A stretch of 64,000 bases of DNA from assembly GCF_024502345.1 (NCBI RefSeq), contig NZ_JALDNN010000001.1, one strand, 5' to 3'. The notes beneath the pieces are model-generated. The model saw only the letters and a program-made list of their open reading frames with translations. It made no database searches and had not been told where the DNA came from. This document shows, piece after piece, positions 10,256-62,433 of this stretch. Source of the stretch: Escherichia coli (GTDB lineage Bacteria; Pseudomonadota; Gammaproteobacteria; Enterobacterales; Enterobacteriaceae). Numbering within the stretch: the stretch's first letter is position 1; each line of letters begins with the position of its first letter. Position numbers and translations under genes: made by a program.

Positions 10256-11695
10256 TTAAGACTGTAAATAAACCACCTGGGTCTGCAGATATTCATGCAG
10301 GCCATGTTTACCATCTGCGCCGCCAATACCGGATTTACGCCATCCGGCGTGGAAGCCTTGCATAGCTTCGAAGTTTTCACGGTTGATGTAAGTTTCACCA
10401 AACTTCAGCCCTTTAATGGCTTTCATCGCGACGTTCAGATTTTGGGTATAGATTGATGAGGTCAGGCCGTAATCACTGTCATTAGCCATTGAGATAGCAT
10501 CTTCCAGCGTGTCAAATGCGACTACCGGCAGAACCGGGCCAAAGGTTTCCTCATGCATAATCGACATTTCCTGGCGAACATCCAGCAGCAATGTCGGCGG
10601 ATAATAATATCCTTTCCCCTCTACCGCTTTGCCACCCAACGCCACTCTCGCCCCTTCTTCTACTGCGCGCGCCACTTTTTGCTCGACCCTTTCCAGCGCC
10701 GCGGCGTTAATCAACGGCCCCATCGCAATGTCGTTGCGTTCAGCGGGGTTACCAAATTGAACCGCCTGCATCGCTTCACCCAGCCGATTGACGAACTGAT
10801 CATAAATGCCTTTCTGTACATAAACACGTTCTGCACAGTTACACACTTGCCCACTATTAATGACGCGTGAATCAACGATGGCTTTGACTGCCAGTTCAAG
10901 ATCGGCATCGTCCATTACGATAGCTGGTGCTTTACCCCCCAATTCCAGACACACTTTGGTGATGTTTTTCGCCGCAGTCGCCATGATCTTCTCACCTGCA
11001 GAGACGCTGCCTGTCATACTGACCATTGTGACCTTTGGGTTACCCGCCAGTTCTTGCCCAACGGTTTCACCACGCCCCAGTACAAGGTTAAACACGCCGC
11101 GCGGAAGGCCTATTTCATCGACGATTTTGGCGAATGCAATCGCATTGTTTGGCGTAAATTCACTAGGTTTAATGACGATGGTATTACCGGTCAAAAGAGC
11201 GGGAGCCATTTTGCGGGCAATGAGGAAGAACGGGAAGTTCCACGGCAGAATGCCGGTAGTCACACCAAGCGCACGTTTAAACAAAAGAATATTTTCTCCT
11301 GGACGATCGCTTTGAATAATCTCGCCCTCGTAACGCCGTGCCCACTCCGCCATGTAATCGATATAGTCGGCAGTAAAAGCCACTTCGACTTCAGCCAGCT
11401 GCTGGATCTTGCCCCCTTCTTCAACAATCAGCGCACTGATTTCACTGGCGCGTTCGCGGATCCCGGCGGAGATTTTGCGCAACCAACTGGCGCGTTCAAT
11501 AGCAGGCAACGCTTCCCATTCTGGTTGTGCACGTTCTGCTGCATCGATTGCCTTACGGGCATCCTCGGCCTGACCATCGGGTATGCGGGAAATGACAGCC
11601 TCTGTAGCAGGGTTTACCACATCAATCCATGCGTCTCCACGCCAGGTAACAAACTGTCCATCGATATACATAGGATGTTGAACGGGTACTGACAT
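10256..11695 (-). CDS. aldA: Lactaldehyde dehydrogenase (NAD-dependent aldehyde dehydrogenase A)
   Basis: 479 aa, MSVPVQHPMYIDGQFVTWRGDAWIDVVNPATE..., aldehyde dehydrogenase family. Confidence 0.9.
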   Translation of the reverse strand: MSVPVQHPMYIDGQFVTWRGDAWIDVVNPATEAVISRIPDGQAEDARKAIDAAERAQPEWEALPAIERASWLRKISAGIRERASEISALIVEEGGKIQQLAEVEVAFTADYIDYMAEWARRYEGEIIQSDRPGENILLFKRALGVTTGILPWNFPFFLIARKMAPALLTGNTIVIKPSEFTPNNAIAFAKIVDEIGLPRGVFNLVLGRGETVGQELAGNPKVTMVSMTGSVSAGEKIMATAAKNITKVCLELGGKAPAIVMDDADLELAVKAIVDSRVINSGQVCNCAERVYVQKGIYDQFVNRLGEAMQAVQFGNPAERNDIAMGPLINAAALERVEQKVARAVEEGARVALGGKAVEGKGYYYPPTLLLDVRQEMSIMHEETFGPVLPVVAFDTLEDAISMANDSDYGLTSSIYTQNLNVAMKAIKGLKFGETYINRENFEAMQGFHAGWRKSGIGGADGKHGLHEYLQTQVVYLQS

Positions 11696-11891
11696 GGGCG
11701 ACTCCTGTGATTTATATGTTTGTTTTCGGTGAATGCATTGTTAATTAACATCAATCATCAGAGAGACGGCATCGGGAAAGGACAATTCTGTGAAGGGCTT
11801 CATAAAAACAAGTGTAAAAGGAATAAAAGGCAGAAATAAAAGTCAGGAGTCATGCCCGTTTGCAAACAAGTGGTTCACAAACGGGCAATTT

Positions 11892-58551: not shown

Positions 58552-58608
58552 AAGTTTCCCTCTAACCGACATTAAAATTGATGCGTAATTATTTGTTTCG
58601 CCTTAAAG

Positions 58609-58645
58609 AAATGCAAACAACTTCCATCAAAAAAGTGACACAGGA
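58609..58645 (+). repeat. Copy A of a 37-nt intergenic repeat, in the pgrR-mppA spacer
   Basis: AAATGCAAACAACTTCCatCAAAAAAGTGAcACAgGA; 33 of 37 positions identical to copy B at 62599..62635. Confidence 0.7.
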
Positions 58646-58887
58646 AGCATAAAATGTTTTATGTATCAATATATTAAATCAGATTTAGTGTAAATAATAG
58701 ACGCCAAAATGCGGCAAAGCACATAGAACACCGAACACTACGTTCGGGCTTCGCACGTTCAAACCAGTTTTCGGTATCATAATCAGCATCTGTCGCCATT
58801 GTACGAAGAATAAAAAATAACCAAAACGTTGAAAGGAACTGAGAATACGTTAAGAGAAGAATTAAATTAATGTATCAGCAAGTAGTG

Positions 58888-59787
58888 CTAAACAGCACCT
58901 TTATACTTCAGCCTATCTATAAATAATGAGAATGCCGAGCCAGCATGTCGACGATGTGGATAGTACAGGTGATAACCGGGTAAATCTGGTGTGAATTTAT
59001 CCAAAACACGTATCAGTTTTTTTTCTTTAATAGCCAGCTCAACCTGATCATAAGGTAGATACGCCAATCCATGCCCATCAATTGCAGCATCAATGATCAG
59101 GTCTATCGTATTCAGTAAAAGCTGACCTTCCATGCGAACACGAACTTCACGTCCACCGCGTATTAATCTCCAGCGATTTGCTGTACCCGATGTGGGAAGA
59201 TACAAATTAATTGCCTGATGATCTATTAATTGTGACACTGACGTTGGAACACTTCGGCGAGAAAAATAATCCGGTGAGCCAACAATAGCCATTGGTATAT
59301 CTGGCCCGATTCGAATGGCGATCATATCTTTATCCATCTCCCCACCCAGACGGACGCCTGCATCAAAACGTTCAGAAACGACATCGGTCAAACCATAATC
59401 AATGGTAAGCTGAACATCAATTTCAGGATGCGATCTCAGGAATGTGCGCATGGCTGGTAACAATATCGTTTTTGCTGCATGTTCTACAGTAGTAATACGT
59501 ATTGTCCCGGATGGGCGGTTCTGCAGATCGCTCAGGGATGTCAGGGCAGAATCTATGTCATGCAACATAGGGCCAAGAACAGACAAAAGATGCTCGCCCG
59601 CTTCAGTTGGTACAACGCTGCGCGTAGTTCGCGTCAGAAGCCGCAATCCCAATCGTTCTTCTATACGGCGCACTATCTGGCTTAAAGCTGACTGCGCCAT
59701 GCTCAGGCGGGCTGCTGCGCGAGTGAAGCTACGCTCCTCTGCAACGACGACAAACGCCATCAGATCAGCGATTTCTTCACGCTTCAT
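58888..59787 (-). CDS. pgrR: LysR-family regulator PgrR (YcjZ)
   Basis: 299 aa, MKREEIADLMAFVVVAEERSFTRAAARLSMAQSALSQIVRRIEERLG; divergent from ycjY. Confidence 0.8.
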   Translation of the reverse strand: MKREEIADLMAFVVVAEERSFTRAAARLSMAQSALSQIVRRIEERLGLRLLTRTTRSVVPTEAGEHLLSVLGPMLHDIDSALTSLSDLQNRPSGTIRITTVEHAAKTILLPAMRTFLRSHPEIDVQLTIDYGLTDVVSERFDAGVRLGGEMDKDMIAIRIGPDIPMAIVGSPDYFSRRSVPTSVSQLIDHQAINLYLPTSGTANRWRLIRGGREVRVRMEGQLLLNTIDLIIDAAIDGHGLAYLPYDQVELAIKEKKLIRVLDKFTPDLPGYHLYYPHRRHAGSAFSLFIDRLKYKGAV

Positions 59788-59812
59788 TCAGTATCTCCAT
59801 ACAATCTATTAA

Positions 59813-59826
59813 TCATTTAAATGATA
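59813..59826. promoter_or_regulatory. Perfect 14-bp palindrome in the pgrR/ycjY divergent promoter; candidate LysR-type operator
   Basis: ATCATTTAAATGAT fits the T-N11-A LysR box, about 25 bp upstream of the pgrR start; followed by a GGTCTAATCA direct repeat at 59827 and 59845. Confidence 0.35.
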
Positions 59827-59924
59827 GGTCTAATCATGATTTAGGGTCTAATCAACTTAATGATCAATATCTATAGTGATATTACCAACCGTTAAAACGA
59901 ACCGACAACTCCATGAGGAACGGA

Positions 59925-60845
59925 ATGATGAATAATAAAGTCAGCTTCACTAACAGCAATAATCCAACCATCTCTTTGTCTGCAGTGATCTATTTCCCTC
60001 CAAAATTTGATGAAACCCGTCAGTATCAGGCAATTGTGGTATCTCACCCAGGTGGGGGCGTTAAAGAACAAACGGCCGGAACCTATGCCAAAAAACTGGC
60101 GGAAAAGGGATTTGTCACTATTGCTTATGACGCATCTTATCAAGGTGAAAGTGGCGGCGAGCCGCGTCAGTTAGAAAACCCATACATTCGTACTGAAGAC
60201 ATCAGTGCCGTGATTGATTACCTGACAACGCTTTCTTATGTCGACAATACCCGAATTGGTGCGATGGGAATTTGTGCCGGTGCAGGATATACAGCCAATG
60301 CTGCAATTCAGGATCGCCGCATCAAGGCCATCGGTACCGTTAGTGCGGTCAATATTGGTTCGATGTTCCGTAATGGTTGGGAAAACAATGTGAAATCTAT
60401 TGATGCCCTGCCATACGTTGAAGCGGGTTCAAACGCCCGAACCAGCGATATTAGCAGCGGAGAATATGCCGTTATGCCACTGGCACCAATGAAGGAGTCC
60501 GATGCGCCGAACGAAGAACTGCGTCAGGCCTGGGAGTATTACCACACCCCTCGCGCGCAGTATCCAACAGCACCGGGTTACGCTACTTTGCGCAGCCTTA
60601 ACCAGATTATTACCTATGATGCTTACCATATGGCGGAAGTGTACCTGACTCAGCCGATGCAGATTGTGGCGGGCAGCCAGGCAGGGAGCAAATGGATGAG
60701 TGACGACCTGTACGATCGGGCATCAAGCCAGGATAAACGCTATCACATTGTTGAAGGCGCAAACCATATGGATCTTTATGACGGCAAAGCCTATGTGGCT
60801 GAAGCAATTTCAGTATTAGCTCCGTTCTTTGAGGAAACTCTGTAA
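59925..60845 (+). CDS. ycjY: Alpha/beta-hydrolase-fold protein YcjY
   Basis: 306 aa from the internal Met; hydrolase-fold motifs including GICAGAGY around a nucleophile-elbow-like position. Confidence 0.75.
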   Translation: MMNNKVSFTNSNNPTISLSAVIYFPPKFDETRQYQAIVVSHPGGGVKEQTAGTYAKKLAEKGFVTIAYDASYQGESGGEPRQLENPYIRTEDISAVIDYLTTLSYVDNTRIGAMGICAGAGYTANAAIQDRRIKAIGTVSAVNIGSMFRNGWENNVKSIDALPYVEAGSNARTSDISSGEYAVMPLAPMKESDAPNEELRQAWEYYHTPRAQYPTAPGYATLRSLNQIITYDAYHMAEVYLTQPMQIVAGSQAGSKWMSDDLYDRASSQDKRYHIVEGANHMDLYDGKAYVAEAISVLAPFFEETL

Positions 60846-61777
60846 TGAAACATATTCAAATCCGCAATAGTGATATGGCCTGGCATATTGCTGCCAATAT
60901 TCAGTTTCCACCAAATTTTGATGAGTCAAAACAGTATCCGGTGATTATCAGCGTCCATCCTTTTGGCAGTTGTAAGGAGCAGACGTCTGGCAATATCTAT
61001 GGCAAAGCATTGGCTGAAAAAGGCTATCTCGTTCTCGCTTATGACGCCAGTTTCCAGGGAGAATCTGGTGGGGAGCCTCGCTGGATAGAAGATCCGACAC
61101 AGCGCGTAGAGGATATTAGCCGTGTTATCGATTATGCAGTAACTCTGCCATATGTTAATGCTGAACGTATTGGCGTGCTGGGAGAGTGTGGGGGTGGTGG
61201 CTATGCCATTAATGCCGCGCTGACAGAAAAACGAATTAAAGCAGTAGTGAGTATTACGGGTGTTAATATCGGGCGTCTTTTTCGGGAAGGTTTCAGCAAT
61301 TACGATCCGATTGGCGCATTGAATGCAATGGCGTCGCAACGAACCAAAGAGGCTCGTGGTGGAGAATTACAGATCAACGAATTACTTCCCGCCAGCCTGG
61401 ATGCAGCAAAAGCCCATGGACTGACCGAACGCGATGTTTATGAAGCAACTGACTACTATAAAACACCACGCGGGCAACAACCGGGAGGTGCGACAAAAAT
61501 GTTGTTCTCACATGCACAGAAAACGCTGGCCTGGGATGCCTTCGCATTTACTGAAGTGTTACTGACTCAGCCGGTGATGGTAGTAGTTGGTGAAAAAGTC
61601 GGTGCCTTCGGTGCTTATCGTGATGGACTGGAAGTCTATGGCCGGGCGATGGTTTCGCAGGATCGTCAGTTAGTTTCATTACCCGATTTCTCACATTATG
61701 AACTGTATGACAAACCGGAAGCAGTTCAGGAGGCGCTGGAAAAAGTTATTCCTTTTTTCAACACCCATCTGGGATAA
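60845..61777 (+). CDS. Second alpha/beta-hydrolase, paralog of YcjY, start overlapping the ycjY stop
   Basis: 310 aa clearly alignable to YcjY (for example YDASFQGESGGEPR, VIDY..TLPYV, GECGGGGYAINAA). Confidence 0.75.
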   Translation: MKHIQIRNSDMAWHIAANIQFPPNFDESKQYPVIISVHPFGSCKEQTSGNIYGKALAEKGYLVLAYDASFQGESGGEPRWIEDPTQRVEDISRVIDYAVTLPYVNAERIGVLGECGGGGYAINAALTEKRIKAVVSITGVNIGRLFREGFSNYDPIGALNAMASQRTKEARGGELQINELLPASLDAAKAHGLTERDVYEATDYYKTPRGQQPGGATKMLFSHAQKTLAWDAFAFTEVLLTQPVMVVVGEKVGAFGAYRDGLEVYGRAMVSQDRQLVSLPDFSHYELYDKPEAVQEALEKVIPFFNTHLG

Positions 61778-61782
61778 GTTTC

Positions 61783-62433
61783 ATGAGAAATATTATGAAA
61801 AATGTACTGATTCTTGGTGCTGGCGGTCAGATAGCCCGCCATGTGATTAATCAACTGGCAGATAAACAAACCATTAAACAAACTTTATTTGCTCGTCAGC
61901 CAGCAAAAATACACAAACCCTATCCAACTAATAGCCAGATTATTATGGGGGATGTACTGAATCATGCAGCACTGAAGCAGGCCATGCAGGGACAGGATAT
62001 TGTGTATGCCAACCTTACGGGGGAAGATTTAGATATTCAGGCAAATTCAGTGATCGCTGCGATGAAAGCCTGTGATGTTAAACGTCTGATCTTTGTTCTT
62101 TCCCTCGGCATTTATGATGAAGTTCCAGGAAAATTTGGCGAATGGAATAATGCAGTTATTGGTGAGCCCCTAAAACCATTCCGCAGGGCTGCGGATGCAA
62201 TTGAGGCTTCTGGATTGGATTATACAATTCTTCGCCCTGCCTGGCTGACTGATGAAGATATTATTGATTATGAGATTACCTCACGCAATGAACTATTCAA
62301 AGGTACGATCGTATCGCGTAAGAGTGTCGCCGCATTAATCACAGATATCATCGATAAACCTGAGAAACACATTGGTGAGAATATAGGCATCAATCAACCT
62401 GGTACTGATGGTGATAAGCCATTCTTCATGTAA
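61783..62433 (+). CDS. NAD(P)-binding Rossmann-fold protein (NmrA/atypical SDR-like)
   Basis: 216 aa with an N-terminal LILGAGGQIA glycine-rich motif; the true start may be the Met at 61795. Confidence 0.7.
   Translation: MRNIMKNVLILGAGGQIARHVINQLADKQTIKQTLFARQPAKIHKPYPTNSQIIMGDVLNHAALKQAMQGQDIVYANLTGEDLDIQANSVIAAMKACDVKRLIFVLSLGIYDEVPGKFGEWNNAVIGEPLKPFRRAADAIEASGLDYTILRPAWLTDEDIIDYEITSRNELFKGTIVSRKSVAALITDIIDKPEKHIGENIGINQPGTDGDKPFFM

Follow-up and report, generated by a model that had tools for sequence, protein, structure and literature searches.

The 137 bp spacer (33% GC) that separates the LysR-type regulator gene pgrR from the divergently transcribed ycjY in Escherichia coli holds a palindrome and a closely spaced direct repeat, which raises the question as to whether these elements form an operator for PgrR and how such an operator would be placed relative to the two promoters. 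In order to address this we looked at the spacer within a 64,000 nucleotide stretch of E. coli DNA, referred to here as the window, together with its orthologs in other genera and the published data on PgrR. A 3.1-kb query around the palindrome has counterparts of 95-100% identity in 5242 of the 5426 complete E. coli genomes and the RefSeq annotation around the palindrome lists pgrR, ycjY/alpha-beta hydrolase and an SDR oxidoreductase, so that both coordinates and annotation bear out the names that had been given to the flanking genes. A protein homolog search of the pgrR locus returned relatives that were all at least 87% identical among the matches listed. The divergent operon runs in the order ycjY, hydrolase 2, SDR and mpaA, and the ycjY start is preceded by a conserved Shine-Dalgarno sequence, GAGGAA (59915-59920).

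Table 1 Features of the pgrR/ycjY spacer and its flanks, in window coordinates; sites, promoter elements and their roles are predictions
Feature	Position	Strand	Remarks
pgrR (ycjZ), LysR-type regulator gene	58888-59787	-	Pfam HTH_1 and LysR_substrate
Conserved module, proposed operator with both core promoters	59808-59877		70 columns, 49 invariant, 0 indel columns
Site 1, ATCA-N6-TGAT, proposed high-affinity PgrR recognition site (RBS)	59812-59825		perfect dyad, invariant in 10 of 11 spacers
Predicted pgrR -10, TATCAT, inside site 1	59821-59826	-	-35 TAGACC at 59850-59845, 18-bp spacer
Direct repeat copy 1, GGTCTAATCA	59827-59836	+	its 3' part supplies the left half of site 2
Site 2, ATCA-N6-(T/A)GGG, proposed ABS-35 sub-site	59833-59846		degenerate dyad, ATCA and TGGG conserved
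Direct repeat copy 2, GGTCTAATCA	59845-59854	+	contains the left half-site of site 3
Site 3, ATCAACTTAATGAT (ATCA-N6-TGAT), proposed ABS-10 sub-site	59851-59864		imperfect second palindrome copy
Predicted ycjY -10, TATAGT	59872-59877	+	-35 TAATCA at 59849-59854, 17-bp spacer
ycjY, alpha/beta hydrolase gene at the head of the divergent operon	59925-60845	+	start set by the 306-aa K-12 annotation

A PgrR binding region in the K-12 ycjY/ycjZ spacer was reportedly described by Shimada, Yamazaki & Ishihama in 2013 in Genes Cells 18:123, and the K-12 RefSeq annotation names PgrR a repressor. PgrR (YcjZ) is a member of the LysR family with a genomic-SELEX peak at the ycjY/ycjZ spacer and a regulon given as ycjY-ymjDC-mpaA, ycjG and ycjXF-tyrR (PMC5934670). 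The literature describes it as a repressor of ycjY and the RegulonDB sign for ycjY is '-' (via the PMC10505187 data). In DAP-seq the value for PgrR at the pgrR promoter is 5632-fold, compared with 4413 for LacI at lacZYA (Baumgart 2021, in the PMC10505187 supplement), and at sfmCD it is only 16-fold (PMC10505187 supplement). CRISPRi knockdown of pgrR raises pgrR promoter activity in PPTP-seq (log2FC +0.97 in glucose) and negative autoregulation was confirmed with a titratable PgrR strain; in the same knockdown the ycjY promoter shows a weak, non-significant rise (log2FC 0.28-0.60), ycjG goes up by 0.5-1.0 and ycjX shows no rise (PMC10505187). The spacer in the window is this same K-12 locus, for which PgrR binding, repression of ycjY-ymjDC-mpaA and negative autoregulation are published; the published binding is at the level of the region and the exact dyad and three-site layout are proposed here. 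A phrase search of the literature found no description of a 'PgrR box' or PgrR motif. The element is already known at region level, to which the three-site reading and the cassette context add only minor detail.

The palindrome itself, ATCATTTAAATGAT, is perfect over 14 bp and has the dyad ATCA-N6-TGAT with its centre at 59818.5. The original prediction had correctly called a perfect 14-bp palindrome, placing it one base off at 59813-59826 in place of 59812-59825, and had the repeat begin immediately after it, where a single A (59826) in fact intervenes before copy 1. Its two copies of GGTCTAATCA are present as described, 18 bp apart from start to start. The T-N11-A architecture that had been ascribed to the palindrome does not hold, as the symmetric T/A pair (59813, 59824) gives T-N10-A, which is one base shorter, and no T-N11-A pair is symmetric about the centre; the half-site centres lie 10 bp apart, still one helical turn. 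Three further features were absent from that earlier description, namely an imperfect second copy of the palindrome detected with a repeat finder (TAATCAACTTAATGAT, 59849-59864), a 10-bp palindrome (AATCATGATT, 59832-59841) and three occurrences of TAATCA (59810, 59831 and 59849).

Whether such features could arise by chance was assessed by shuffling the 137-bp spacer 20,000 times with its dinucleotide composition preserved. A perfect palindrome of at least 14 bp appeared with P = 0.016 and an exact direct repeat of at least 10 bp within 40 bp with P = 0.006, so that each feature alone is modestly improbable, and the joint probability of the two was 1e-4. Perfect palindromes of at least 14 bp number only 3 across the whole 64-kb window. 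The shorter pattern ATCA-N6-TGAT recurs across the window, with 10 exact occurrences where dinucleotide shuffles predict 1.5, including those at 11427, 13966, 16369, 18401, 18482, 48931, 55718 and 60201. The two that were checked, 18401 and 18482, lie inside one long ORF, and a codon-structure effect is a possible cause of this window-wide excess.

In order to determine how far the spacer is conserved we scanned one genome per species and recovered 10 orthologous pgrR loci with protein identities of 85-99%, drawn from Escherichia, Citrobacter, Pseudocitrobacter, Kluyvera, Shimwellia, three Serratia and a MAG. All 10 are divergent to a ycjY ortholog and the same layout is found on a Klebsiella plasmid. 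The spacer alignment comprises 11 sequences representing approximately five independent lineages, between which identity at the 4-fold degenerate sites of pgrR is down to 31-43%, a level that indicates saturation. Over the same distances the module at 59808-59877 is still 80-91% identical when set against four non-Escherichia lineages. The left flank of 20 bp beside the pgrR ATG (59788-59807) has 15-30% identity, no invariant column and a variable length, and the right flank of 35 bp (59878-59912) has 46-66% identity. Conservation of the palindrome in orthologous promoters, on which the original prediction had made itself dependent, was found on running this check, with ATCATTTAAATGAT invariant in 10 of 11 spacers against a background of saturated synonymous sites. 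The eleventh, a MAG, carries one A>C change, which is also the only change in the longer stretch ATTAATCATTTAAATGATA (59808-59826). Within the species, 5190 of 5222 E. coli genomes carry 59804-59838 at 100% identity, each as a single copy. Judged from these alignments the palindrome is under strong purifying selection. With no indels over 70 bp the helical phasing is kept, and the fixed spacing within the conserved block argues for a protein-DNA architecture.

These data also bear on the possibility that the features are chance occurrences, or belong to young and recently transferred DNA without selected function. The modest improbability of each feature taken singly and the mobility of the pgrR-ycjY cassette, which is carried on Klebsiella conjugative plasmids, would be compatible with such an origin. 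Against it are the joint shuffle probability and the contrast between saturated synonymous sites and flanking spacer on the one hand and a block that is 80-91% identical and free of indels on the other. We give this explanation next to no chance of being correct and have rejected it on the grounds of neutral-site saturation between lineages.

The proposed operator comprises three sites (Table 1), with the centre of site 2 at +21 bp and that of site 3 at +39 bp from site 1, leaving 18 bp between sites 2 and 3. Each site is preceded by (T/C)A, giving rise to the three TAATCA hexamers. Sites 1-3 span 53 bp (59812-59864) and, tested as a sequence pattern, all are conserved and without indels. The left half of site 3 is invariant, and its right half varies, being TGAT in five of the 11 sequences and one of TAAT, TGGT and TTGA in the other six. 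On this layout the two GGTCTAATCA copies are the left half-sites and 5' flanks of sites 2 and 3 and not a separate element. The exact 10-mer repeat is found in Escherichia only: copy 1 is AGTCCAATCA in most other genera, with only G.C..ATCA kept across genera, and in the region of copy 2 GGGTCTAATCA is unchanged in 9 of 11 sequences, the remaining 2 having a single substitution apiece. What is kept across genera is the (T/C)AATCA half-site and its phasing. The suggestion that the repeats could be the activation-site half of the operator holds for a promoter-proximal operator part, and fails for the exact 10-mer as a general feature since this is specific to Escherichia; an activating role would be conjectural, as PgrR is known as a repressor of ycjY.

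The K-12 spacer differs from that of the window at 3 of 137 positions, none of which lies in site 1, site 3 or the repeat copies; one of the three is 59843, in the degenerate right half of site 2. This is the first base of that half and the window reads AGGG, not TGGG, with A at a nearly invariant column at which K-12 and every other genus have T. The A59843 allele is also carried by strain FHI_NMBU_03 and is rare, with at most 11 genomes at least 99% identical over the spacer.

LysR-type (LTTR) operators are described as an RBS with a T-N11-A dyad near -65 and ABS sub-sites at -35 and -10 (PMC8407307). The spacer lies, as such operators do, between an LTTR gene and its divergent target operon, and sites 2 and 3 provide the pattern of weaker ABS sub-sites within a total span of 50-60 bp. 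If TATAGT is the ycjY -10, sites 1, 2 and 3 centre at approximately -65.5, -44.5 and -26.5, positions that would agree with the RBS(-65)/ABS-35/ABS-10 description (PMC8407307) and would speak for an LTTR operator. Should a published alternative, TCTAAT, be the ycjY -10 instead, the centre of site 1 would fall at approximately -40. The T-N11-A core of the LTTR box is lacking in site 1, which is T-N10-A. The original view of the palindrome as a LysR-type autoregulatory site accordingly keeps its core idea, which is backed by conservation, region-level binding and negative autoregulation, and loses the T-N11-A architecture. Counting against an operator are the T-N10-A dyad itself, the 18-bp spacing between sites 2 and 3 and the right half of site 3, which is degenerate in 6 of 11 sequences.

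The promoter assignments rest in part on the same alignment. CTATAGT (59871-59877) is invariant in 11 of 11 sequences while both of its flanks are variable, which makes TATAGT the likely ycjY -10; the predicted -35, TAATCA, is weak. The TAGACC/TATCAT hexamer pair predicted for pgrR is invariant across orthologs and is also given for pgrR in PMC3946193. Copy 2 of GGTCTAATCA contains the candidate ycjY -35 and, on the minus strand, the candidate pgrR -35. The ycjY transcript would start near 59884 and the pgrR transcript near 59814, and under the latter predicted start site 1 spans -10 to +11 of pgrR. The ycjY promoter prediction of PMC3946193 is ATGATA-19-TCTAAT; in the window sequence the spacer counts 20 bp, and TCTAAT is as invariant as TATAGT. 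No experimental transcription start site in the spacer is included in the list of Kim et al. 2012, nor was one found among the Cappable-seq entries listed. That list does hold a start site (10 reads) assigned to ycjY that lies antisense inside pgrR, at window 59246 (+), and gives a 667-nt ycjY leader; its upstream sequence is exactly window 59196-59246.

Since the sites share bases with promoter hexamers, promoter constraint could account for some of the conservation. Taken to its limit this would leave only two overlapping divergent core promoters (sigma-70, perhaps sigma-E), with the palindrome and repeats as by-products of face-to-face hexamers and PgrR binding elsewhere in the spacer or independently of the dyad. 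Consistent with this, all the candidate hexamers (TATCAT, TAGACC, TAATCA, TCTAAT, TATAGT) lie within the repeats and are invariant, and RNA polymerase holoenzymes alone select the spacer in SELEX, as seen in genomic SELEX with RpoD (PMC3946193) and with RpoE (strong peak, 17.2) and RpoH (4.4), pgrR and ycjY having been called RpoE-dependent (PMC5493296). However, four hexamers cannot account for 49 of 70 invariant columns or for the absence of indels, the outer bases of the perfect 14-bp dyad lie outside any hexamer, and PgrR binds the spacer approximately 5600-fold over background in vitro without polymerase. A sigma-E promoter in particular finds no consensus match on either strand of 59760-59960, using GGAACTT, 15-17 bp and TCTGA, TCAAA or TCTAA with at least 5/7 and at least 4/5 matches respectively. 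We regard promoters alone as a very unlikely explanation. The likely reading is that 59808-59877 is a PgrR operator intertwined with the two divergent core promoters, those of pgrR and ycjY.

Contact of PgrR with these exact bases is suggested by conservation and geometry. The recognition helix of PgrR, MAQSALSQIVRR, is identical in every lineage that retains the palindrome. Clean co-variation of helix and operator was not found among homologs of 65%, 58% and 50% identity; these keep the divergent LTTR/hydrolase layout and have different candidate short dyads (ATATGCATAT, TTGTTAATTAACAA and CTTATAAG), and in the 65% homolog the recognition helix is almost identical to that of PgrR, yet the dyad differs. 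Elsewhere in the window, a perfect 12-bp palindrome, TGTTAATTAACA (11739-11750), is located in intergenic DNA and precedes an aldA-like aldehyde dehydrogenase gene on the minus strand (10256-11695); it resembles the TTGTTAATTAACAA dyad upstream of the 58% homolog.

When a matrix derived from sites 1 and 3 was run over 40 kb of K-12 DNA, scores of 16 or more were confined to these two sites, which fits a transcription factor with one dominant target, and the perfect dyad likewise fits a single target of very high affinity. In matrix and motif scans the motif was absent at the other reported PgrR targets ycjG, ycjX, sfmCD and ydjE. This absence means that these targets provide no independent link between motif and PgrR, and it fits the gap between 5632-fold and 16-fold in DAP-seq. 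In the K-12 pgrR-mppA intergenic region (window ~58600-58880) a half-site match with one mismatch, GTCACTTTTTTGAT, is located upstream of mppA, and a CRP site in the ycjZ/mppA spacer has been reported in ETEC (PMC4287617).

The AT-rich composition of the array opens the question of whether its ATCAT/ATGAT hexamers are read by another regulator, for instance Fur or a nucleoid protein, besides or instead of PgrR. The stretch GATAGGTCTAATCATGATT (59823-59841) matches the 19-bp Fur box consensus GATAATGATAATCATTATC at 13 of 19 positions, the Citrobacter-group sequence matches this box at 14 of 19, operator and box both being AT-rich arrays of this kind, and knockdown of hns raises ycjY promoter activity (log2FC 0.88, PPTP-seq, PMC10505187). 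The dyad ATCA-N6-TGAT, which is the feature conserved most strongly, nevertheless has its half-sites in the opposite order to the Fur 7-1-7 dyad and is left unexplained by it, a likeness of this degree is expected of any AT-rich ATCA/TGAT array, and no account of Fur acting on ycjY or pgrR turned up in the literature searched. We judge such a reading decidedly unlikely.

A role of the palindrome at the RNA level, as a hairpin of the pgrR 5' leader or of an antisense RNA, appears highly improbable. The minus strand of 59788-59880 can indeed pair the arms of site 1 and site 3 with an MFE of -16.9 kcal/mol, but this fold is no better than that of shuffled sequences (z = -1.3, with 18 of 200 shuffles folding as well), the best Rfam hit has E = 0.89 and is no match, and no compensatory changes of the arms are seen across orthologs. 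In addition the predicted pgrR start falls inside the palindrome, so that most of it would be untranscribed.

Returning to a PgrR operator, its operation can be modelled on LTTRs in which, without inducer, a tetramer occupies the RBS and ABS-10, bending the DNA and blocking the promoter, whereas inducer lets it slide to ABS-35, with autorepression exerted through the RBS (PMC8407307). One DNA-binding dimer of a PgrR tetramer would sit on site 1 (ATCA-N6-TGAT) and its occupancy would switch pgrR off, because site 1 overlaps the pgrR -10 and predicted start; this overlap is what suggests that autorepression acts via site 1. The second dimer would occupy a weaker downstream site. Without effector this would be site 3, over the ycjY -35/-10 spacer, where it would hold ycjY down with the DNA bent and would explain the mild repression of ycjY. 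With effector the dimer would slide to site 2 and the weak ycjY promoter would be freed or activated. By analogy with the known systems such two-state sliding, and any activation of ycjY, is conceivable, and the weak ycjY -35 leaves room for a hypothetical effector-dependent activation. Given that T-N11-A is not present we describe the spacer as functioning in the manner of an LTTR RBS/ABS operator whose dyad is one base shorter.

The closest parallels are BenM/CatM of Acinetobacter baylyi and CbnR-type operators, in which an RBS, ATAC-N7-GTAT, at approximately -65 is combined with ABS sites 2 and 3 and a sliding dimer. As in BenM/CatM, the LTTR gene is divergent and autoregulated, and the proposed PgrR operator combines a distal dyad of high affinity with two weaker phased dyad-like sites, which lie approximately two helical turns apart and reach into the -35/-10 region over a span of approximately 55 bp. 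Unlike BenM/CatM the PgrR site is ATCA/TGAT with a 6-bp gap, 14 bp and T-N10-A versus 15 bp and T-N11-A; sites 2 and 3 are spaced by 18 bp, not 21 bp; and PgrR is described as a repressor. The NodD nod box is a further LTTR motif, ATC-N9-GAT, that occurs as tandem inverted half-sites upstream of a divergently regulated operon. It shares with the PgrR site the ATC...GAT inverted half-sites in tandem copies and differs in its gap (N9 versus N8), the regulator clade and biology being unrelated.

Taken together the spacer very probably contains a real, functional and ordinary LysR-type operator, and both PgrR binding and autorepression at this promoter had been reported before. What is gained is a testable proposal for the PgrR site at base level, one perfect dyad with two phased weaker sites, that would explain the reported autorepression through a dyad lying over the pgrR -10 and that suggests an effector-switched action on ycjY. 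Its practical value is modest in that it guides mutagenesis, footprinting and the search for an effector, and leaves the understanding of LysR-type regulation unchanged.

The context of the operator outside E. coli bears on what PgrR is for. pgrR, ycjY, hydrolase 2 and the SDR (window 58888-62433) behave as a mobile four-gene cassette that is also carried on conjugative Klebsiella plasmids, such as pC9_001 of Klebsiella aerogenes, and in Citrobacter, Kluyvera and Serratia the cassette has no mppA or mpaA alongside. The absence of these genes, together with the mobility, calls into question peptidoglycan recycling as the primary role. We tentatively raise the possibility, which we hold to be doubtful, that PgrR is an effector-responsive LTTR whose primary ancestral target is the mobile ycjY-hydrolase-SDR cassette and not a dedicated repressor of peptidoglycan recycling. 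If this were true, the three-site operator and the weak ycjY -35 would predict an effector-dependent move of the dimer from site 3 to site 2, with ycjY being activated, and the link to mpaA/mppA would be an Escherichia-specific accident of where the cassette landed. YcjY, with 88-92% amino acid identity, is more conserved than PgrR. At 60845-62433 the second hydrolase (310 aa) and the SDR (216 aa) are both intact in the window; their K-12 counterparts are the ymjD and ymjC remnants, and at least 80% coverage of this full version is found in only 1281 of 5242 E. coli genomes.
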